Shown: positions 1 to 11,853, counted from the stretch's first letter. The stretch is 14,092 nucleotides of DNA from Myxococcales bacterium (GCA_037441385.1 JBBISH010000148.1:1-14092); one strand, 5' to 3'. Notes: generated by a model not told the origin, from the sequence alone. Made by a program: numbers and translations.

Positions 1-84
1 GCTCAGGCCCAGGTTCAGGTCCAGGCTCAGGCTCAGGAACAGGTTCAGGAACAGGCTCAGGCTCAGGAACAGGTTCAGGTTCGG
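1..84. repeat. Degenerate hexamer tandem array (GNNCAG)n, left arm, truncated by the window edge
   Basis: 13 consecutive units at 1-78: gctcag gcccag gttcag gtccag gctcag gctcag gaacag gttcag gaacag gctcag gctcag gaacag gttcag. It then decays (gttcgg, gttccc, gttccc). Positions 25-48 and 55-78 are identical 24-mers. Confidence 0.97.
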
Positions 85-127
85 TTCCCGTTCCCGGCTC
101 TGGCGGGTGGACCTCTAGCCCAACGCA

Positions 128-170
128 CCAGGCGCCCTGCGGGTTTGCGACCTCCCGCAGGCCGCCCTGG
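128..170. other. GC-rich stem-loop just downstream of the four-helix-bundle stop codon
   Basis: ccagg(128-132)-cgc-cctgcggg(136-143)-10 nt loop-cccgcagg(154-161)-ccgc-cctgg(166-170). No U-tract on either strand, so it is not a classical intrinsic terminator. Confidence 0.7.
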
Positions 171-178
171 CTGCCCAC

Positions 179-502
179 CTACCGCTGCGCCAAACGGAAC
201 AGCATGGCGCGAATCTGGTCCAGCTTTCCGGCCAGCTCTGCAACCGGCGTCGCATCCAGCAGCCCCAGCGCCTGCATGAGCCCCAGCCCGGCCGCAGCCT
301 CCGACGCGGAACCCCTTGCCACACCGAGCAAATTCCGCCGGTCGCCGGCCTGCCGGTTCAGCCCCTCGCTGGTATTGAGCACCACCGACGTGAGCGCCCT
401 GCGCACCTGATCGACCAATTCGCCATTCCCCCTGGGCACTTCCCCGACCAACCGAATGCCGTCCCGCGCCACTTCCCGCGCCAACCCTTCCACGATCAAC
501 AT
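179..502 (-). CDS. Four helix bundle protein (TIGR02436 / 23S rRNA-IVP / bAvd-like family), 107 aa
   Basis: ELVDQVRRALTSVVLNTSEG...DRRNLLGVARGSASE matches the family signature L.DQ.RRA..S...N..EG...ARGS..E. ATG at 502 is preceded by an SD-like AGAGG (atagaggttacgtcATG). Size is typical for the family. The TTG start at 574 in the ORF track is less likely. Confidence 0.88.
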   Translation of the reverse strand: MLIVEGLAREVARDGIRLVGEVPRGNGELVDQVRRALTSVVLNTSEGLNRQAGDRRNLLGVARGSASEAAAGLGLMQALGLLDATPVAELAGKLDQIRAMLFRLAQR

Positions 503-565
503 GACGTAACCTCTATCTGCCGGCCGAAAACCGACCGTGCCCCCGTGGCCGCCACGCCGCGCGGA

Positions 566-615
566 GCCTGGCAAGGCCGGCCCGAGTAGGGCCGCTCGTC
601 TTGGCCTTGCCGGGC
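566..615. other. Nested inverted repeat/stem-loop upstream of the four-helix-bundle gene
   Basis: gcctggcaaggcc (566-578) pairs with ggccttgccgggc (603-615) at 12/13 positions. Inside it is the hairpin ggccc-gagta-gggcc (579-593). Confidence 0.7.
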
Positions 616-680
616 GAGCAGGGTGTGGCAGGCTTGGGGAACAAGGAGAGAAGGCAAAGACAATTAGGGGCTTTGGGGAG

Positions 681-776
681 CTGATCCTGATCCTGTTCCT
701 GTACCTGTACCTGTACCTGTACCTGATCCTGTACCTGATCCTGTACCTGAACCTGATCCTGATCCCGACCCCGCCC
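681..776. repeat. Degenerate hexamer tandem array (CTGWWC)14, right arm, reverse-complement orientation to the 1-78 array
   Basis: 681-764 has 6x ctgatc, 6x ctgtac, 1x ctgttc and 1x ctgaac. It decays as ccgacc ccgccc (765-776) up to the stop codon of the PLC-like gene. Confidence 0.97.
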
Positions 777-1714
777 TACAACCCATTCAAAGTCTTGACC
801 ACACTGATCAAATCCCCTTCGCTGTACCAGTCGACCGCCAGCATGCCCACCCGCTGTTTCTGCTGCTGCTCGCACTGCTGGGCCCGCTGCAACAACAGCG
901 GGTTGTGGTTGGCCAGCTTGGCCAGCTGGTCGTGCGGCTCCAGGTTGTGGGTCAAGAAGTGGTTGACCACAAAGAAGCGGTTGCCTGGCTTGCCGCGCAG
1001 CACGTCGCAGCGGAAGTCCTCGGGCTTTTCAGCGGCATAGGGCGTATCGAACGCCAGGCTTTGGTAACCATGGTTCCATGGCTCGGCGCCGCCGCCGGAC
1101 TCGGTCATGATGAGCAGCCGCTTGTCCTGCGCAATCACCTGGGCCAGCGTGGGCGTGGGGTCATTGGGCCCCAAGTGCAGGCAGCGCGGCAGCAATCCGG
1201 CTGCCTGCAGGCCCGCGTTCAGTGCCGCCTCGCTCACATAGTCCTCGAAGATGATGACCACGAATTCGCGGGGGTGCGCGTCTAGCCACTGCCGCAGCGC
1301 CGTCATGGCCGCAGTGAACTCGGTCGCGCCTAGCTTGCAGCTGGCGTGGCACAGGTAGGGCTTGCCCTGTTCGCCGGCCAGGGTCCCGTCGTACGGGTGC
1401 ACGTCCAGCATGAAGCCGCGGATGCCCGCGTCAAGCTGGGGCAGCATCCCGTCGGGTTGGTTGGGGAGCAGAAAGCCATCGGCCTTGCTGCTCATGGCGT
1501 TGTGGGCGGTGGGCAGGGTGATTTGGTTGATCGGCCGCGCGCACAGGGCCGGATCGCCGTTGCAGGGCAGGGCCGCACTTGTGTCACCGCTATCGCCCGC
1601 TCCGCCAGCGTCGTTGCTGACCGTGGCGTCGGGTGGCACCGGGCTCGCCGACGAACCACAAGCGCCGAGCACCAGAACTGCGCCCAAGATCCAGGCTTTG
1701 CCGGCCGTGTTCAC
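776..1714 (-). CDS. PI-PLC X-domain / PLC-like phosphodiesterase (TIM barrel) lipoprotein, 312 aa
   Basis: Motifs CNG...LCAR, TAHNAMS, NQ...QLDAGIRGFMLDVH, LCH..C, WLDAHPREFVVIIFED, NHFL and AVDWY. Signal peptide with lipobox LGAC. GTG at 1714 overlaps the upstream TGA (GTGA coupling). Confidence 0.85.
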   Translation of the reverse strand: MNTAGKAWILGAVLVLGACGSSASPVPPDATVSNDAGGAGDSGDTSAALPCNGDPALCARPINQITLPTAHNAMSSKADGFLLPNQPDGMLPQLDAGIRGFMLDVHPYDGTLAGEQGKPYLCHASCKLGATEFTAAMTALRQWLDAHPREFVVIIFEDYVSEAALNAGLQAAGLLPRCLHLGPNDPTPTLAQVIAQDKRLLIMTESGGGAEPWNHGYQSLAFDTPYAAEKPEDFRCDVLRGKPGNRFFVVNHFLTHNLEPHDQLAKLANHNPLLLQRAQQCEQQQKQRVGMLAVDWYSEGDLISVVKTLNGL

Positions 1715-3660: not shown

Positions 3661-4743
3661 ATGGCTGCCCAGTCCCCCCAAGTCTACCGCCCACCGTCGG
3701 CCTGGCGCGAGTTCGCCGTGTTTTGGTTTGGCCACGAGGCGCGGCGCCTGCAGTTTCTGACCGCCATGGCCGTGCTGATCCTGGCGCTGCTGGGTGCCCA
3801 GCAGTTTCGCCTGGAAAAAGACTTGGCTGGAGCGAGTTTGCGCGTGTCTGGCGGCGCCGAGGTGGCGTACGTGGCGCCCGTGCCGGCGATGCGCATGGCC
3901 TCGCTGGGCAACCAGGGCGCGCTGGCCGACCTGCTGTTCTTGCGGGCCGCGCACTACTTTGTCGAGCACCTGATCACCGACAGTCGGCTGCCGTGGCTGG
4001 ATGTGTACCTGGACGCGATGTGGGGCCTGGACGCGCACATTCGCCAAAGTTATCGCTGGGGTTGCCAGGTCATCAAGTTTGGCCAGCGCATCGACGACGA
4101 CGTGGCCCGCCGCGCCAACCGCATGGCCCGCCTGGGGCTGGAGTACTACCCCGACGAGGCCTGGCTGTACCACGAGATTGCCTTCAACCTGCGCTATTCG
4201 GTCGAGGCCAAGACGCCTGAGGAGGAGAAGGCGCTGCGGGACTTGGCGCTGAAGTACTTGGACGTGGCCTACTCGTTCCCGGGTTTTGTCTTCGATCCCT
4301 CGTACTTGGTGGGCCAGTACAGCCGCGCCGGTCGCAGCGACGACAGCGTGCAGGCGGCCTTGGCCACCTATGCCCAGGCGACCGCGGCTCAGCGCCAGAC
4401 CCTGCGGCAAATGCTGCTGGATCGCAACAAGAACGATCTAGCCAAGCAGTTGGCATGGTTCGATTTTTCGCAGCAGCGCAATTGGCCGTGGGCGCAACCG
4501 ACCCTGGCGCTGCTGCTTGGACCGCGACCCCGGCTGGCGCCGCCGCTGCAGGCCGCCCACCCCGAGAATTGGCCCAATTATCCGCGGCCCGACGCGGCCC
4601 GGCTCGACGAGCTGGGCGTGCCGGCGATCGAGTCACCCGACGGCGACGGCTGGCTGCCCGACGAGCTGGCCGGCAAGGAGCTGTGGGCTGCCGAGAAGAA
4701 CCCCGCGACCTATCTGCCCCACGACGCCTCCCCCACGCACTAG
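3661..4743 (+). CDS. Membrane-anchored helical (TPR-like) protein resembling myxobacterial PilG / Geobacter XapA-type proteins, 360 aa
   Basis: N-terminal TM (FLTAMAVLILALLGA), then MASLG...ADLLFLRAAHYF...PWLDVYLDAMWGLD...YRWG...GLEYYPDEAWL...AF. I recall this pattern from deltaproteobacterial pilus-associated proteins. Host-like codon usage. The stop overlaps the SD of the next gene. Confidence 0.6.
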   Translation: MAAQSPQVYRPPSAWREFAVFWFGHEARRLQFLTAMAVLILALLGAQQFRLEKDLAGASLRVSGGAEVAYVAPVPAMRMASLGNQGALADLLFLRAAHYFVEHLITDSRLPWLDVYLDAMWGLDAHIRQSYRWGCQVIKFGQRIDDDVARRANRMARLGLEYYPDEAWLYHEIAFNLRYSVEAKTPEEEKALRDLALKYLDVAYSFPGFVFDPSYLVGQYSRAGRSDDSVQAALATYAQATAAQRQTLRQMLLDRNKNDLAKQLAWFDFSQQRNWPWAQPTLALLLGPRPRLAPPLQAAHPENWPNYPRPDAARLDELGVPAIESPDGDGWLPDELAGKELWAAEKNPATYLPHDASPTH

Positions 4744-4749
4744 GAGCCC

Positions 4750-5775
<1,026 letters not shown>

Positions 5776-5805
5776 GTCAATTCAACAGGTAGAAAATGCC
5801 CCCCA

Positions 5806-6546
5806 TTACGCTGCGGGGGACTCGCCCAGGGCCTGCACGTAGGCGGCGCGAAGGCGGTCGGCGAGAGTGCGCACGTCGTCGGCGGTCAGGCCGGCAGTCG
5901 GCAGCGGCGGCAACACGTCGAACACGACCTTGCCCGGCGAGCAGGCCACGGCACTCCGCGGCCACAACTCTGCACAACCGTGGATGATCAAAGGGTAGAT
6001 CGGTACTTGCGCCGCGATCGCGACGTGGAAGGGGCCCAGCTTGAACGGCCCCAGCTTGCCATCGGGCGAGCGCGTCCCTTCGGGCGAGATGAGCACGCTG
6101 TGCCGGCCGCGGACGATGCGCTGGGCGACGGCCTTGAGCATGCCGGTGGCGCCCTGGCGGTCGGCGCGGGCCAGGCGGACCACGTCGAGCAGCAGGATCA
6201 CCTGGCCAATCAGCGGCAGGTACAGCAGCTCCTTTTTGGCAATGACAATAGAGCCTTGGCACATCATGGTGGCGCCGACCATCAGGTCCAGGGTCGAGCT
6301 GTGGTTGAAGGTCAGCACGCGCGCCTCGCGGCGCTCCATGACCGCGCGGGCCGCCCGCGTGTACTCGATCTGCACGCCCAGCAGCCAGCTAGAGATGTAG
6401 CCCCAGCCGCGCACCAGCGCGCAGCCCAGCGTGTCTTTGGCCAGGCCCAGGGTGGCCAGCAGCAGCACGATCATGGTCGGGATGTAGAGCGCGCAGAACA
6501 GCCAGATCAGAATCGCTTGCTTGGCGGCGCGCAGGTACGTTCGCAT
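5806..6546 (-). CDS. plsC: 1-acyl-sn-glycerol-3-phosphate (lysophospholipid) acyltransferase, PlsC family, 246 aa
   Basis: NHSSTLD (HX4D), AKKEL, PEGTRS and FKLGPF motifs, plus an N-terminal hydrophobic helix. ATG at 6546 chosen over the TTG at 6576. Confidence 0.9.
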   Translation of the reverse strand: MRTYLRAAKQAILIWLFCALYIPTMIVLLLATLGLAKDTLGCALVRGWGYISSWLLGVQIEYTRAARAVMERREARVLTFNHSSTLDLMVGATMMCQGSIVIAKKELLYLPLIGQVILLLDVVRLARADRQGATGMLKAVAQRIVRGRHSVLISPEGTRSPDGKLGPFKLGPFHVAIAAQVPIYPLIIHGCAELWPRSAVACSPGKVVFDVLPPLPTAGLTADDVRTLADRLRAAYVQALGESPAA

Positions 6547-6662
6547 CGGCCTACCGTAGCGGCATTGGCCCAGCACGGCAAGGCCCAGAAGACGCCCCCC
6601 AATTTCTACTGCACGGAATTACGCCAATTGCTGGGTCGCCACGGAGCCAGAGCGTCGCGACA

Positions 6663-6691
6663 TTGACGCCCCGCCGCCGGTTTGGGATCCT
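6663..6691 (+). promoter_or_regulatory. Possible sigma70-type promoter for the oxidoreductase-asnB-dusC operon
   Basis: TTGACG (6663-6668), a 17-bp spacer ending in TGG, then GATCCT (6686-6691). Good -35 and a weak extended -10, about 46 nt before the ATG at 6738. Confidence 0.3.
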
Positions 6692-6737
6692 ACCGCGCCG
6701 CCGGCCGACCCCCTGGCCGCGCGCAGAGAGGGCGACC

Positions 6738-8930
6738 ATGAAGCAAGTGCTGCAAAACATGAAGACGGGCGACCTGCGGGTGGCCGATGTGCCGGTCCCT
6801 GCGCTGCGCCCGGGTGGCGTGGTGGTGCGGGTGGCGGCGTCGTGCATCAGCGCGGGTACCGAGCGCAACATCATGGATTTCGCCAAGAAGTCGTATGTCG
6901 AAAAGGCGCGCGCACGGCCTGACTTGGTGCGGCAGGTGTTCGACAAGGTGCGCAAAGAAGGTCTGCTGCCCACCTACAAGGCGGTGATGTCGCGCTTGGA
7001 TGTCGAGACGGCGCTGGGCTACTCGTGCGCGGGCACGGTGGTCGAGGCCGGCAGCGAGTCGGGCTTTGCCGTGGGCGACCGCGTGGCCTGTGCCGGCATG
7101 GGCTTTGCCAGCCACGCCGAGTACGTGTACGTGCCCAAGAATTTGACCGTGCGGATTCCCGACGGTGTCACCTTCGAGCAGGCCAGCTACGCCACCATCG
7201 GTGCCATCGCCATGCAGGGCGTGCGGACCCTGGAGATCACGCTGGGCGAGCATGTGGTGGTGATCGGGCTTGGGATCATTGGCCTTTTGGCGATGCAGCT
7301 GGTCGAGGCCAACGGCGGCCGCGCCATCGGCATCGACCTGGACCCGCGCAAGGTCGAGCTGGCCAAGCAGTTGGGGCTGCAGCACTGCATGGTCCGCACG
7401 GGCGATTGCGAAGCGGCGGTGCAGGGTTGGACCCAGGGCGTTGGGGCCGACGCGGTGCTGGTCGCCGCCGGCGCGCCCACCCCGGACCCGCTGCATCTGG
7501 CGGTGCAATTGTGCAGGAAGCGCGGGCGCATCACCGTGCTGGGCATGGTGCCGCTCGAGCTGCCGCACAAGCCGTTCTACGAAAAGGAGCTGCAGCTCAA
7601 GATGTCGACCTCGTACGGGCCGGGCCGCTACGACCCGCAGTACGAGATCGACGGCGTGGACTATCCGCTGCCGTACGTGCGCTGGACCGAGCGCCGCAAC
7701 CTCTCGTCGTTCCTGGATCTTATTGGCGCCGGCAAGGTCGACGTGGGCAAGCTGACGACCCACCACTTCCAGCTGGATCAGGCGGCCGACGCCTACGCGC
7801 TGATCGAGGGCAAGGTCCCCGGCGCGCACCCGGTGGGCGTGCTGTTCCAGATGCCCCAGGGCGCCGACGATAAGCCGCAACGCCGCGTGGAGCTTGGGCA
7901 AAGGACCCGCAAGCACCAGGGCCGCCAGGTGCGCATCGGCCTCATCGGCGCCGGGACTTTCACCCGCGGCGTGCTGTTGCCGGCGATCGCCGCGGCGCCC
8001 GACGTGGTGTTCCAAGGCGTGTCGACCGCGACCGGCCAGACCGGCGAGAAGACCGGCAGCAAGTATGGCTTCCGCTACGCCACCACCGACTACAAGGCGC
8101 TGCTGCAGGATCCCGAGGTCGATCTGGTGGTCATCGCCACCCAGCACCGCGCCCACGGCAAGATGGTGGTCGAGGCCCTGCAAGCCGGCAAGCACGTCTT
8201 TGTCGAGAAGCCGCTGTGCGTGACGCGCGACGAGCTGGCGCGCATTCGCGAGGCCTACCAGGGCACCGGCGCAGTGGTGCACGTGGGCTTCAATCGGCGC
8301 TTTTCGCCGCATGTGCTGGCGGTGCGCGATCACTTCGCTGGCGTGGGCGAGCCGCTGTTTTCCACCTATCGGATCAACGCCGGCTACGCGCCACCCGGAT
8401 CGACAATGCACCGCGAGGGCGGCCGCGTCATCGGCGAGGTCTGCCACTTCTTGGACACGCTCATTGCCATCACCGGCGCGCCCATCAAGCGGATGCAGGT
8501 CGCCAAGGTCGAAGCCGGCAACGCCGCCCTGACCGACGAGGACTCGGTGGCGCTGATCTGCGAGCACGAAGGCGGCCACCTGTCGACGATCCAGTACCTG
8601 GCGCGTGGCAACGCGCTGGTGCCCAAGGAGCGGCTGGAGGTGCACGGTGGGCTGCGCTCGGCGGTGCTGGACGATTTTTCGACCCTGCGCCGCTACGACG
8701 GCAGCAAGGTCAAGACCGACCGGCTGCTGGTGCAAGACAAGGGCCACAAGGCCCAGATGGCCCAGCTGATCGCGGCGGTCCGGGCGGGCAGTCCGGCGCC
8801 GGTGCCGTTCGACATCCTGTGTCACGTGACCGAGCTCACCATCGACGCGGCCGAGCGGCTAGCGGGCGAGTCCGGGCTGCCGGCCGATTGGCAGCGCGAC
8901 GGCGATTTTGCCGTTGCCACCGAGGTTTAG
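6738..8930 (+). CDS. Bi-domain oxidoreductase (MDR/Zn-ADH-like + Gfo/Idh/MocA), typical of polysaccharide clusters, 730 aa
   Basis: MKQVLQ start with SD GAGAGG. SCISAGTE, LGYSCAG, GLGIIG and SYGPGRYDPQYE in the first domain. IGLIGAG, HVFVEKP, VGFNRRFSP, GEVCHFLD and DKGH in the second. Confidence 0.93.
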   Translation: MKQVLQNMKTGDLRVADVPVPALRPGGVVVRVAASCISAGTERNIMDFAKKSYVEKARARPDLVRQVFDKVRKEGLLPTYKAVMSRLDVETALGYSCAGTVVEAGSESGFAVGDRVACAGMGFASHAEYVYVPKNLTVRIPDGVTFEQASYATIGAIAMQGVRTLEITLGEHVVVIGLGIIGLLAMQLVEANGGRAIGIDLDPRKVELAKQLGLQHCMVRTGDCEAAVQGWTQGVGADAVLVAAGAPTPDPLHLAVQLCRKRGRITVLGMVPLELPHKPFYEKELQLKMSTSYGPGRYDPQYEIDGVDYPLPYVRWTERRNLSSFLDLIGAGKVDVGKLTTHHFQLDQAADAYALIEGKVPGAHPVGVLFQMPQGADDKPQRRVELGQRTRKHQGRQVRIGLIGAGTFTRGVLLPAIAAAPDVVFQGVSTATGQTGEKTGSKYGFRYATTDYKALLQDPEVDLVVIATQHRAHGKMVVEALQAGKHVFVEKPLCVTRDELARIREAYQGTGAVVHVGFNRRFSPHVLAVRDHFAGVGEPLFSTYRINAGYAPPGSTMHREGGRVIGEVCHFLDTLIAITGAPIKRMQVAKVEAGNAALTDEDSVALICEHEGGHLSTIQYLARGNALVPKERLEVHGGLRSAVLDDFSTLRRYDGSKVKTDRLLVQDKGHKAQMAQLIAAVRAGSPAPVPFDILCHVTELTIDAAERLAGESGLPADWQRDGDFAVATEV

Positions 8931-8933
8931 CGC

Positions 8934-10892
8934 ATGTGCGGTATCTACGGGCGGCTGGGAGCGCGCCAAGACGAACTGGACAAGCGCGCCACCGCCAGCC
9001 TGCGCCACCGCGGGCCGGATGACGCGGGCATCTGGGTCGACGACGCCGCCGAACCGGCGATGATCCTTGGACATACCCGCCTGTCGATCCTGGACCTCAG
9101 CGCCGCCGGCCACCAGCCCATGCTGACGCCGGACGAGCGCTACGCCCTGGTCTTCAACGGCGAGCTGTACAATTTTGCCACACTCCGTCGCGAGCTCGAG
9201 GCGCTGGGCGTGCCGTTTCGATCGCAGTCGGACACCGAAGTGGTGCTGCAGAGCTTGGTGCAGTGGGGCGACGCCGGGCTGACGCGCCTGGAAGGCATGT
9301 TCGCGATTGCGCTTTGGGATCAACGCGAACGACGCCTGCTGCTGGCGCGCGATCCCAGCGGCATCAAGCCGTTGTTCTGGCGGCAAGGTCCGGACGCGCT
9401 GGCGTTTGCTTCTGAGATCAAGGCGTTGCTGGTCGATCCGCAGGTGTCGCGGCAGCCGAACCTGCCGGCGCTGGCGGGCTTCTTGCAGTACTTGTATGTG
9501 CCTACGCCGCAGACCGCCTTCCAGGGCATCCACAGCTTGCGGCCTGGTCACCGGCTCGTCTGGCAGGCGGGTGCCCACGACATCAAGCGTTTCTCTGGAT
9601 TTTCGCTGCACAACAAGGCGCCGCTGCGGCCGCTGGAGGCGGCGAGCGACGATCTGGAGCGGCTGCTGCAGGCGGTGATCGGCGAGCAGATGGTGGCCGA
9701 TGTGCCGGTGGGCGCGTTCCTGTCCGGCGGCCTTGATTCGGGCCTCATCGTGGCGCTGATGGCCAAGGCCAAGCGCGAACGGGGCGATCGCGAGCACCTG
9801 CGCACCTTTACCGTGGCGTTTGGCCGCGAAGGCGGGCAGTGGGACGAGTCGGCGCGCGCCCGTCGCATGGCCCAGCACCTGGGGGTGGAGCACGCGGTCG
9901 TTCACGTGGATCCGCAGCAGGTGGCGGCCAATTTCCACATGGTGGCCGACCAGTTCGACGAGCCGTTTGCCAACCCCACCGCGATGGCGCACGACGTGCT
10001 GTGCCAGTTCGCCCGCCGCGAAGTGACGGTGGCGTTGGCCGGCGACGGCGGCGACGAGGCCTTTGCCGGCTATCCGCGCCACCGCGCCGTGTGGTTCCTG
10101 CAGGCCTGGCAGCGGCTGCCGGCCCGGCTGCGCCGCGAAATTGCGCGTGTCGAGGCGCGGTTGCCCGAGCAGGCCGAGGCTTTGCCTTTGCTGCGCCAAG
10201 CGCGGCGTTTCGTGCGCAGCAACCGCCACGGGTTTGCCGAGACCTACCGCGATTGGCTCACGTTCTACAGCCAAGAAGCGCTGTGGGACCTGCTGAGCGA
10301 GTCGATGCGCGTCGCGCTGGGCGATCAGCTCCCGCCGGATTTGGGTAATACCTTGGCCAGCTTGCGCGAGGTCGAGGGCGCTCACCCGATTGACGCCGCC
10401 TGCTATGCCGACATTGCCGGCTTCTTGCCCGACAACGTGCTGCGCGAGTCGGACCGCATCTCGATGCGTCACGCCCTGGAAGTCCGCGTGCCCTTTGCCG
10501 ATCGCCGCGTGCTGCAATACGGCCTTAGCCTGCCGGTGGAATTGAAGCTGCCGGCCCAAAGCCTGCTCAGCCGCAGTGGCGGCGCCCAGGCTGGCAAACG
10601 TGTTTTGCGCAATCTGGCGGCGCGCTACCTGCCCCACGAAGTCGTGGCCGCCCCGAAGCAGGGTTTTGGTGCGCCGATGGGGGCGTGGCTGCTGGGGCCG
10701 CTGCGCGAGCAGATGGAGCGATCGACCGACCCGCACCGCGTGGCCGCGCTGGGCATCGTAAGGCCGGAAGTCGCGGAGCAATTGCGGCGCGAACACTTGG
10801 CGGGCCAGCGCGATCGCACCTGGCCGCTGTGGAGTCTGATGGTGCTCGACTCGTGGTTCGCCCGCTGGATCGAGCGCAGTGGCCATGGTTGA
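8934..10892 (+). CDS. asnB: Asparagine synthase (glutamine-hydrolysing) family amidotransferase, probably glycan-amidating, 652 aa
   Basis: N-terminal MCGI (Ntn Cys), HRGPD, HTRLSILD, FNGELYN, SDTEV, FLSGGLDS, GDGGDEAFAGY and DRISM..LEVRVPF. Confidence 0.95.
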   Translation: MCGIYGRLGARQDELDKRATASLRHRGPDDAGIWVDDAAEPAMILGHTRLSILDLSAAGHQPMLTPDERYALVFNGELYNFATLRRELEALGVPFRSQSDTEVVLQSLVQWGDAGLTRLEGMFAIALWDQRERRLLLARDPSGIKPLFWRQGPDALAFASEIKALLVDPQVSRQPNLPALAGFLQYLYVPTPQTAFQGIHSLRPGHRLVWQAGAHDIKRFSGFSLHNKAPLRPLEAASDDLERLLQAVIGEQMVADVPVGAFLSGGLDSGLIVALMAKAKRERGDREHLRTFTVAFGREGGQWDESARARRMAQHLGVEHAVVHVDPQQVAANFHMVADQFDEPFANPTAMAHDVLCQFARREVTVALAGDGGDEAFAGYPRHRAVWFLQAWQRLPARLRREIARVEARLPEQAEALPLLRQARRFVRSNRHGFAETYRDWLTFYSQEALWDLLSESMRVALGDQLPPDLGNTLASLREVEGAHPIDAACYADIAGFLPDNVLRESDRISMRHALEVRVPFADRRVLQYGLSLPVELKLPAQSLLSRSGGAQAGKRVLRNLAARYLPHEVVAAPKQGFGAPMGAWLLGPLREQMERSTDPHRVAALGIVRPEVAEQLRREHLAGQRDRTWPLWSLMVLDSWFARWIERSGHG

Positions 10893-11853
10893 CCCGCCCC
10901 GGCTCGTGCTGGCGCCCATGCAGGGCGTGACCGAAGCGCCGATGCGGACCCTACTCACTGAGTTGGGTGGCTTCGACCTGTGCGTCTCCGAGTTCGTCCG
11001 CGTGGCGCAGAACCCCTTGACCGAGAAGGTGGTCCTGCGCATGGTGCCCGAGTTGCGCCAAGCGGCGCGCACCCCGGCGGGGGTGCCCGTGCAAGTGCAA
11101 CTGCTGGGCGGCGACCCGGATCGGCTGGCGTGGGCGGCGCAAACGGCCGTGAAGGCCGGCGCGACCGGCATCGATCTGAACTTTGGCTGCCCGGCGCCGA
11201 CCGTCAATCGCCACGACGGTGGTGCGACCCTCCTCAAAGATCCTCCGCGCTTGCAGGCCATCGTCGCGGCCGTGCGCCAGGCGGTGCCGGCGACGCTGCC
11301 GGTGTCGGCCAAGCTGCGGCTGGGTTGGCAGGACCCGCGCGATATCGACGTGACCGCCCAGCGCGCGGCCGACGGGGGCGCCAACTGGCTGACGATCCAT
11401 GCCCGCACCCGCGCCCAAGGCTATGCGCCGCCTGCGGATTGGCACGCGATTGGCCGGGTCCGCCAAGCCCTGCCGATTCCGGTGGTGGCGAACGGCGACC
11501 TGTTCACCCTGGACGACGTCGAGCGCTGCGCCGAGGTGACGGGCTGTCGCCAGTTCATGCTGGGCCGCGGCGCGCTGGCCGATCCCACCTTGGCGGGTCG
11601 AGTGGCCGCCTGGCAGCGCGGCGAAAAGCCCGTCGCGCCGCCGGTTCCCGGCAATCCGTGGCCCGCTTGGTTGGCCCGCCTGGCCGAAATCGGCCGCGCC
11701 GCCGGGCAGGACGACCGGCAGCTGCTCAAGCGGGCCAAGCAGTGGCTGCGCCTGCGCTGGGAAGTGAGCCAGTGGACGGGCTTTGGCGTCGCGAAGCGCG
11801 CAGATACCTTTGCTGAATTGCAGCGGATTCTTCCGGCGTTGCCCTACACTTGA
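10885..11853 (+). CDS. dusC: tRNA-dihydrouridine synthase, DusC-like, 322 aa
   Basis: LAPMQG, CVSEFVRV, VQLLG, IDLNFGCPAPTVN..GGATLLK, TIHART, ANGD, MLGRG and C-terminal R.KQWL. ATG at 10885 overlaps the end of asnB by 8 nt. Confidence 0.88.
   Translation: MVDPPRLVLAPMQGVTEAPMRTLLTELGGFDLCVSEFVRVAQNPLTEKVVLRMVPELRQAARTPAGVPVQVQLLGGDPDRLAWAAQTAVKAGATGIDLNFGCPAPTVNRHDGGATLLKDPPRLQAIVAAVRQAVPATLPVSAKLRLGWQDPRDIDVTAQRAADGGANWLTIHARTRAQGYAPPADWHAIGRVRQALPIPVVANGDLFTLDDVERCAEVTGCRQFMLGRGALADPTLAGRVAAWQRGEKPVAPPVPGNPWPAWLARLAEIGRAAGQDDRQLLKRAKQWLRLRWEVSQWTGFGVAKRADTFAELQRILPALPYT

Follow-up and report, generated by a model that had tools for sequence, protein, structure and literature searches.

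Four-helix-bundle proteins of the PF05635 family are common and structures have been solved, but a function is known only within diversity-generating retroelements (DGRs). The DGR protein Avd binds RNA. The gene considered here encodes a PF05635 protein at one end of a 14,092-nt contig from a Myxococcales bacterium (GCA_037441385.1, JBBISH010000148.1:1-14092). This stretch, referred to as the window, is the entire contig C148 of the source genome G000 (6.6 Mb, 67% GC). Its first 776 nt appear to hold an accessory chromosomal cassette, in which a hexamer array, a candidate fold-back promoter, the four-helix gene, a hairpin and a second hexamer array follow each other in a gap between convergent genes. 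The explanation preferred here, tentatively, is that the cassette would be switched on from single-stranded DNA (ssDNA), that its Avd-like protein would act on array-bearing ssDNA, and that host recombination would move it. The observations behind this proposal are the anatomy of the cassette, its intact and selected gene, its insertion at the site, the covariation and strand asymmetries of its leader, and the co-occurrence of gene and arrays across genomes.

What is known of comparable systems? For repetitive extragenic palindromic (REP) sequences and REPINs, the presence of a RAYT gene goes with many intergenic repeats, the gene itself is flanked by repeats, and there are ssDNA intermediates. 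The short tandemly repeated repetitive (STRR) sequences of cyanobacteria are comparable dispersed intergenic arrays of short units. Multicopy intergenic short tandem repeats in Geobacter have been proposed as regulator sites and, in the available parts of the two reports, are not tied to four-helix genes (PMC2700814, PMC2996986). In Coxiella burnetii, the 23S rRNA intervening sequence (IVS) has a 28-bp stem that is cut by RNase III; heptamer repeats precede its open reading frame (ORF), which the accessible portion of the paper reports as decaying (PMC4990558). On plasmids, the boxes of Frpo/ssi promoters are rebuilt on a folded single strand and point into the gene, according to the excerpts of three reports (PMC9849209; 10.1101/2023.02.15.528439; PMC12672017). 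Leaders of the klcA/ardA type make up class 2 of these ssDNA promoters, with starts mapped by 5'-RACE (rapid amplification of cDNA ends) in pESBL (PMC12672017). In the literature covered, as far as the excerpts go, ssDNA promoters are established only for plasmid leading regions (PMC9849209, PMC12672017). The partial texts of four papers describe multicopy repeats, strain-specific four-helix genes or a likeness to Avd, and no link between arrays and gene (PMC2700814, PMC2996986, PMC8700078, PMC10053308). Titles and abstract openings, among which subscription papers and hyphenation variants are under-covered, contained nothing that connects the family with ssDNA promoters, with array load or, outside rRNA, with flanking arrays.

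The cassette consists of the following features, in window coordinates.

1..84, no strand: downstream hexamer array, (GNNCAG)13 at 1-78 followed by one looser unit, reading (CTGNNC)n in gene sense; truncated by the contig end and probably continued on contig C24 (pattern search, contig-end comparison)
128..170, no strand: GC-rich terminator-like hairpin directly after the stop codon (read from the sequence and from folds)
179..502, minus strand: four-helix-bundle gene (PF05635/TIGR02436), 107 amino acids, isoelectric point (pI) about 10.4, under purifying selection (profiles, model, dN/dS)
510..514, minus strand: candidate Shine-Dalgarno-like AGAGG, 7 nt ahead of the ATG (read from the sequence; putative function)
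551..634, plus strand: leader hairpin on the gene's template strand, candidate ssDNA promoter (covariation, base asymmetries)
635..680, plus strand: purine-rich tract from the -10 box to the array, similar in composition in close homologues
681..776, no strand: upstream hexamer array, with (CTGNNC)14 at 681-764 and two looser units that reach the neighbour's stop codon, reading (GNNCAG)n in gene sense

The first-pass annotation of the window had counted 13 or more GNNCAG and 14 CTGNNC units and had set the right-hand array against the stop codon of the co-oriented upstream gene. A strict pattern returns exactly 13 and 14, and a looser one runs to position 776, the stop itself.

The protein encoded at 179-502 exceeds the cut-offs of both PF05635 (48.9 bits against 33.8) and TIGR02436 (53.1 bits against 24), which agrees with the family assigned to it in that annotation. 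Its predicted structure has four helices, with a predicted local distance difference test (pLDDT) score of 96.4. Compared with solved structures, the model gives template-modelling (TM) scores of 0.92 against Xcc0516 (2GSC; 27% identity), 0.87 against BT_0352 (2RLD) and 0.84-0.86 against bAvd (PDB 4DWL, 8UB7; 11-12% identity). Xcc0516 is described as a homopentamer in the accessible part of one report (PMC4990558). Among seven close homologues, the ratio of nonsynonymous to synonymous substitution (dN/dS) is 0.10-0.36 over 21 pairs and the pI is 9.8-11.0; the gene is therefore maintained and its protein is basic. Close relatives of the protein come from records assigned to Myxococcota, and within the phylum 63 of 251 genomes contain the family at E values up to 1e-12, with as many as 17-25 matches per genome. 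Distant members occur at two loci in viral contigs. A second paralogue in G000, 93% identical, lies on contig C188.

Has the cassette been inserted, or is it a regular part of this gap? Its flank is a widespread host gene.

776..1708, minus strand: phospholipase C (PLC)-like, phosphodiesterase-type gene, host flank outside the cassette, matched in 47 of the 61 genomes searched

For this PLC-like gene, the PI-PLC-X profile gives only a score below threshold (16.1 bits; cut-off 23.1). In the sister genome G005, an orthologue of this gene (75% identical) adjoins a convergent gene across a gap of 4 nt, and the orthologue of that convergent gene is located on contig C24 of G000. Because the sister genome has a 4-nt gap at this site, the cassette is an insertion. 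Empty sites downstream of PLC-like orthologues were what the first-pass annotation had proposed to look for, and they bear out that part of its claim which concerned an inserted cassette.

Since the window is all of contig C148, the left array is cut by the contig end. Contig C24 starts with 13 more units and has the only contig start that shares at least 17 nt with the end of C148 (23 nt), and synteny with G005 agrees with a join of the two. None of the public contigs (DNA contigs of three sequencing runs) bridges this join. By these sequence comparisons, the left array most likely continues into C24. Given the resemblance between the two contig ends and the synteny with G005, the insert is most likely about 3.7 kb long and would comprise an array, the leader, the gene, the inverted array, an AAA_14/DUF4143 gene, a WYL gene and a last array in the first orientation. 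The probable cargo, at G000:C24:462-2799 (L081), encodes an AAA_14 plus DUF4143 ATPase and a WYL/WCX protein. The same locus holds a 59-amino-acid piece with no Pfam match, which resembles a fragment of DNA polymerase III alpha.

Orthologous gaps contain nothing, a solo array or a cassette. In G007, a solo array follows the PLC-like stop codon, and the 199 nt up to the contig end hold no leader. The gap between a sigma factor gene and lon is about 12 nt in G005, is filled by a solo array in G000, and in G007 contains an array, a gene pair and another array in direct orientation, with the lon side on another contig. The gap of the C188 copy is likewise empty in G005. This genome is empty at three gaps, while G000 and G007 hold cassette versus solo array reciprocally at two; from the reciprocal filling it follows that solo arrays and cassettes occupy the same sites. 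The arrays may be landing pads or scars. No joint removing the cassette occurs in the DNA contigs of the three sequencing runs, which drop rare forms, and one joint that skips 484-550 belongs to a diverged copy.

The arrays also have companions of other kinds. An element of about 60 bp, with CCCCAC...GTGGGG ends and two inner hairpins, occurs at six or more positions within hexamer arrays or at their borders (G000:C24:93-150, and also C29, C37, C94, C104 and C106) and, at a metagenome locus, ahead of one four-helix gene. Possibly it is a small mobile element with the arrays as its target. The motif GTGTCAAGTGTCAATACCTGAC or its complement adjoins many arrays, on G000 contigs C53, C56, C73, C100, C124 and C17, and in G007 after the PLC-like stop codon.

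How might the gene be expressed? The leader hairpin, which the first-pass annotation does not mention and which tells most about the cassette, lies between the upstream array and the start codon and is conserved in close homologues. It contains the following parts.

551-578, plus strand: 5' arm of the leader
584-588, plus strand: loop closed by G..A
607-612, plus strand: -35-like TTGCCG, with a 16-nt spacer to the -10 box
626-627, plus strand: TG of an extended -10
629-634, plus strand: -10-like CAGGCT

The main stem ends at -12, where 551 pairs with 629, and transcription would start near 539. A first alignment had 21 rows, of which those of G053, G046, G025 and G015 were misaligned; six rows were dropped and the remaining 15 leaders were used for the counts, on a structure drawn from the window's own fold. 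Over 23 pairs, 91.8% of cells are paired, with two-sided changes in 12 pairs. None of 500 shuffles reached as high a pairing score, and slid controls gave 26-36%. The leader is thus a conserved, covarying hairpin, and it favours the fold of the template strand. On that strand there are 24 G.T pairs versus 7 A.C pairs, and the boxes have A at -11 and G at -14 in all 15 leaders and T at -7 in 12 of them, these being positions with known roles in promoters. Among 30 distinct leaders, an A at -11 after a spacer of 16-17 nt is present in 27 template arms versus one mirror arm, and that single case is a row with a mis-assigned partner; the mirror arm, which faces the gene in duplex DNA, is without it in the other 29. 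Small loops closed by G..A (triloops) are stable in DNA. In the mini-hairpins of the leaders, G..A loops outnumber T..C loops by 60 to 1, versus 656 to 606 in the background; counted by source, 11 lean this way, one leans the other way and one is tied, and 36 of the 60 come from G053. The excess of G.T pairs, the G..A loops and the boxes on the distal arm together suggest that it is the template strand that folds, as DNA. The same design is seen in G191, G242 and G265, in leaders that were not part of the training set.

The boxes are directed away from the gene in duplex DNA and towards it once the template strand is folded. The promoter-like elements, namely a TTG-type hexamer, a 16-17-nt spacer, TG, A at -11 and T at -7, are on the distal arm only, and -12 departs from the consensus. 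The core of the leader of a family-level relative matches 327 plasmid records (E up to 1). Six of nine inspected matches lie 77-212 nt from the start of a gene on the opposite strand, and five of these six are in regions with parB, psiA/psiB, ardA or other antirestriction, methylase or zincin genes. The klcA leader of the F plasmid has the same core in the same orientation. By analogy, the leader layout is that of plasmid ssDNA promoters, and the leader is a candidate ssDNA promoter.

The outward direction of the boxes in duplex DNA invites another reading. An ordinary promoter could fire outward, so that the purine tract and the array are transcribed, antisense to the upstream gene, into a structured repeat RNA, which the Avd-like protein could bind as a ribonucleoprotein. 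The -35 and -10 boxes at 607-634 do point into the array, the upstream array is the more constant arm (present at 89 of 129 genes versus 62 for the downstream one), and in DGRs Avd partners the reverse transcriptase (RT) and the template repeat, according to an excerpt of one paper (PMC10053308). However, such a promoter does not need pairing with the upstream arm of the hairpin, yet the stem covaries and ends at -12. Most of the hairpin lies upstream of the start and would be untranscribed, the triloops are of the kind that is stable in DNA, and the polarity of the arrays differs between gene clades. This reading is distinctly unlikely.

Are the arrays particular to the four-helix gene? With strict arrays defined as four or more units, G000 contains 31; a looser pattern, used as a second definition, finds 65, of which 38 were called intergenic. 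The 31 strict arrays make it clear that arrays are not unique to the gene. Among 4677 genes called with a simple purpose-made gene finder, an array lies within 300 nt upstream of 24 and downstream of 40, and a single one, 179-502, has arrays on both sides. The C188 paralogue, missed by the caller, is likewise bracketed. The first-pass annotation had named genome-wide occurrence of the arrays, coupled with a lack of enrichment or orientation bias around four-helix genes, as refuting its proposal. The arrays do occur genome-wide, yet they remain enriched around the gene. Nor is the left array the coding end of a conserved neighbouring gene, as had also been considered there, and both G000 paralogues are flanked in the same inverted polarity, a layout it had proposed to look for.

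Solo arrays favour convergent gaps (13 of 33, versus 320 of 2750). They have no polarity relative to stop codons (11 versus 10), and they do not mark accessory genes only, as many of their neighbours are housekeeping genes (prfA-lepA, recA, sigma factor-lon, ribBA-yebC). The neighbours were judged from 47 proteins at 23 hand-picked sites, and a few of them are toxin-antitoxin genes. Array units can be read as Gly-Ser or Pro-Glu, and 27 of the 65 loose arrays fall inside called genes. A role as coding linkers was rejected for the arrays beside the four-helix gene, which are not in a conserved ORF.

A wider collection of 129 distinct genes was assembled from loci picked by best score or by hand, and is therefore not a random sample. 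Arrays are present on both sides of 52 of these genes, upstream only of 37 and downstream only of 10. In the two-sided cases, 36 pairs of arrays are inverted, 10 are direct, 4 are tied and 2 are of unequal period. Hexamers account for 24 inverted, 10 direct and all 4 tied pairs, while all 12 two-sided cases with 7- and 8-mers are inverted. For heptamer arms, the best match of an arm is its own partner in 10 of 10 cases.

Could the two arms pair in a read-through mRNA, so that RNase III or another nuclease releases the gene-bearing loop, similar to a 23S rRNA IVS? A stem of about 80 bp had been proposed in the first-pass annotation. As RNA, the two arms can indeed pair, over 68 of 84 nt and at -120 kcal/mol. 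Their longest unbroken helix, however, is only 11 bp. The sense strand of 1-790 folds with its arms paired (-420.7 kcal/mol, z -7.4), but the antisense strand folds as significantly (z -8.1), and the arm duplexes of the two strands are about equal in energy. Of 300 shuffles of the units, 11% (C148) and 79% (C188) give arms that pair at least as well. When ten other long arrays are paired with the upstream arm, the energies are -7.9 to -10.1 kcal/mol per unit, compared with -8.85 for its own partner. Release from mRNA has in its favour the significant sense fold, the uniform inversion of the two-sided 7- and 8-mers, and the Coxiella IVS, which in the accessible text combines the same protein family with heptamer repeats and RNase III cleavage (PMC4990558). 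By contrast, the 11-bp helix is far from the 28-bp Coxiella stem and there is no sign that the arms are matched; 47 of the 129 genes are one-armed and 10 have direct arms, and a template-strand leader is left unexplained. Release of the loop is quite improbable. An excisable or processed mRNA element, one of the functions suggested at first, is not supported as the main mechanism: unit order is unmatched, other arrays pair equally well, 52 of 129 genes are two-sided, and direct hexamer pairs occur. The IVS model may suit the heptamer-armed subfamily better; it is a poor fit to the hexamer clade to which the 179-502 gene belongs.

The units themselves vary, and this variation bears on whether an adenine-mutagenic RT laid down the arrays, as in DGRs, with the four-helix protein as its Avd partner in trans. 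The variable NN is most often AA on one strand (70 of 241 units), positions with an A consensus vary most (28% in hexamers), and the fold is that of bAvd. However, T positions on the same strand vary too (19% in hexamers; in heptamers 17% for A versus 15% for T). As both A and T vary, the signal is A:T versus G:C and not adenine-only, and DGR-style mutagenesis of the arrays was rejected as not clean. The only RT found in G000 is retron-like and no template repeat was identified in this genome; the sole PF00078 match, at G000:C119:17412-18047 (L170), is on another contig and has retron models as its best matches. An origin by RT is highly improbable.

Does the presence of the gene go with the number of arrays in a genome? 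Array load was taken as matches to a six-unit pattern on both strands, together with the reversed pattern, which catches a second array family, in 61 related genomes. Of 17 genomes with the gene, 11 have at least 120 matches, compared with 2 of the 44 that lack it (class-level profile); by Pfam gene calls, the figures are 12 of 17 and 1 of 44. In these counts matches overlap, the threshold of 120 was chosen after the data had been seen, the genomes are incomplete and relatives among them are not independent. Within the genus, three carriers have 216, 810 and 890 matches, and eight non-carriers have 16-98. The dominant unit of a genome is also the one next to its gene (for example, 2956 versus 77 in G053 and 211 versus 5 in G000). 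The Y1 transposase/RAYT family (PF01797) was rejected as the driver of array load, with which it shows no association (6 of 34 versus 7 of 27). The tracking of array load with the gene, to which there are exceptions, may point to an undescribed kind of self-spreading chromosomal element. It also lends indirect support to another function suggested in the first-pass annotation, namely that the protein may act on its own repeats. A gene pair at G026:C135 is nearly identical in protein to that of G012; G026 has few arrays and its five congeners lack the gene, so that the pair is possibly a recent transfer or a misbinned contig.

Alternatively, the arrays might be lineage-specific slippage repeats in neutral gaps of genomes rich in repeats, with the gene and its hairpin as passengers in the same gaps and no functional link between protein and arrays; even so, the hairpin could act as an ssDNA promoter or serve as a priming site. 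Solo arrays are common, lack stop polarity, favour convergent gaps and flank many housekeeping genes, the same gaps collect other repeats, the genome G060 has arrays without the gene, and the unit order of the arms is unmatched, all as neutral slippage would have it. Against this stand the bracketing on both sides, which in G000 is confined to four-helix genes, and the array load, which in congeners follows the gene and not the Y1 transposases. The gene-adjacent unit dominates its genome, and heptamer arms match their own partners best in every case. Slippage without a functional link is therefore unlikely in our judgement.

Thirteen convergent (tail-to-tail) gene pairs are present among the loci, in genomes of several families, and in the 12 measurable ones the two genes are 45-67% identical. 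The members of a pair fall in different clades of a protein tree whose branches are long and whose joins are weak, and which served for this placement alone. Several pairs have a leader for each gene, and a hairpin resembling 128-170 is found between the two genes of some. As the outer arrays are direct in only five of the nine measurable pairs, a pop-in between direct arrays is not general. Because the candidate promoter would need its template strand to be single, a convergent hetero-pair would provide one expressible gene whichever strand enters.

These observations can be assembled into the preferred scheme of ssDNA expression and array recognition. The template strand would be single-stranded during uptake by transformation or conjugation, the hairpin would rebuild the promoter as in Frpo/ssi, and RNA polymerase would read the gene; by analogy with the plasmid leaders, this step is probable. 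A ComEC-type gene is present in G000, as in most bacteria. The basic Avd-like oligomer would then bind ssDNA carrying the arrays and aid its persistence or recombination, so that gene and arrays spread together, which we consider on balance plausible. That the cassette has no enzyme of its own and is moved by host recombination, with the arrays as landing pads or scars, is a tentative suggestion. A bolder version, which is rather doubtful, sees widespread enzyme-free selfish chromosomal elements that are on only while single-stranded during horizontal transfer, and whose Avd-like ring recognises the short tandem arrays of its genome on incoming ssDNA and aids establishment. If this were true, gene and arrays would be driven through populations and the four-helix family would be given a function; bacterial arrays of 6-8-mers would be recognition tags, and convergent hetero-pairs the strand-independent form of the element. 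Two testable predictions arise from the cassette: where transcription would start on a defined folded strand, and which repeat unit, specific to the genome, would be the ligand.

Several points weigh against the proposal, in addition to the caveats on array load given above. Position -12, where T is usual, is C in 12 of 15 leaders. The leader is limited to a clade: 35 of 51 class-level genes score at least 11 (15 of them G053 copies), with a background of 33 of 585. The threshold of 11 is quoted because a score of 9 is too lax (background 142 of 585). Of the phylum-level genes, 10 of 71 were flagged for a leader and about six are convincing; other family members have hairpins over the ribosome site or ordinary promoter-like motifs. 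Leader-type hairpins also occur as orphans without a four-helix gene, at G000:C23:20390-20484 (L088) and in G001 (L095), G004 (L097) and G016 (L096). The plasmid matches to the leader core are short, three of nine lack the geometry and their -10 boxes are not uniform. A covariance model of the leader found nothing significant in the F leading region (best E 0.48), and a plasmid search with the 179-502 protein gave no match. Under the rule applied, 30 of the 129 genes have no array. G060 has 1092 array matches in a 3.1-Mb genome in which no four-helix gene was found, and six genomes (G016, G017, G025, G026, G057 and G058) have the gene and fewer than 100 matches, the G025 unit not being covered by the pattern. 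The outer arrays of the nine measurable pairs are direct in five, lean inverted in two and are unrelated in two. Finally, a synonymous divergence (dS) of 0.52 between the two G000 copies indicates that they diverged long ago.

Some leaders are of other designs or have other neighbours. At L178-L180, L188-L190 and L206 (G075, G193, G100, G214), a near-perfect hairpin of about 20-30 bp includes the ribosome-binding site and abuts the start codon; most of these cases are convergent pairs whose stop codons overlap. A conserved GCAAC ... CGATA-like motif lies a few to about 25 bases before the start codon at L157, L158, L161, L163, L166, L191-L193 and L197-L199, and by eye looks like an alternative-sigma promoter. 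The ORF after the orphan hairpin of L097 resembles, also by eye, the start of an IS110-type transposase, and G023 L104 retains only a 5' stub of a four-helix gene.

The rest of the window is of a different character. Positions 3661-11853 presumably hold a polysaccharide-type cluster (epimerase, acyltransferase, oxidoreductase, asparagine synthase-like) and a tRNA-dihydrouridine synthase-like gene, labelled from ORF translation alone. No transfer genes are in the ORF list of the window, of which the family scan covered three genes only. An Rfam search of 1-900 gave no family match below E 0.6.

How does the cassette compare with known systems? It shares with the 23S rRNA IVS that carry an S23p/IVP ORF, in Leptospira and Coxiella burnetii, a PF05635 protein, complementary arms and short tandem repeats beside the ORF, as far as these are described in the accessible text (PMC4990558). 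It differs in lying between protein genes, with no Rfam rRNA match in 1-900, in its degenerate hexamer arms with a longest helix of 11 bp and recurrent internal loops, and in having a leader hairpin of its own. Its ORF is under purifying selection, unlike the Coxiella ORF that is reported, in the same excerpt, to be decaying. With bAvd of DGRs the protein shares the four-helix fold and a basic character; however, no DGR-type RT and no template or variable repeat were found, and the fold is nearer to Xcc0516 and BT_0352. Similar to REP/RAYT systems, a gene flanked by arrays goes with genome-wide intergenic repeats, but PF05635 proteins are not HUH nucleases, the repeats are tandem hexamers and not palindromes, and their load is unrelated to PF01797. 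Dispersed intergenic units of 6-8 nt, some in inverted pairs, are also a feature of the Geobacter arrays. If the link between gene and arrays holds, dispersed short-period intergenic arrays would be given a cause, as REPs were with RAYT.

The closest likeness of the leader is to class 2 Frpo/ssi promoters (klcA, ardA; PMC12672017), with a long hairpin upstream of the gene, a template-strand fold and -35/-10 boxes on the gene-distal arm. The two also share a short core, GCAAGG/GTCAAGG ... GCGAAGCG ... CCCTTG, in the same orientation. Unlike them, the leader is chromosomal and precedes a single small gene between tandem arrays; it lies outside a leading region, between conserved chromosomal genes whose orthologues abut in G005. 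Its stem is shorter, -12 is mostly C, and its model has no match to the F promoters. If the promoter part alone holds, ssDNA promoters would extend to chromosomes and to another phylum, and a chromosomal gene with such a promoter would be resident DNA with a programme that runs during its own transfer. The protein thus belongs to a known family, while the cassette lacks what defines an rRNA IVS, a DGR or a REP/RAYT system and appears to have an Frpo-type layout outside a leading region. This combination appears to lie outside the known kinds of element, and the mechanism proposed for it is held tentatively.

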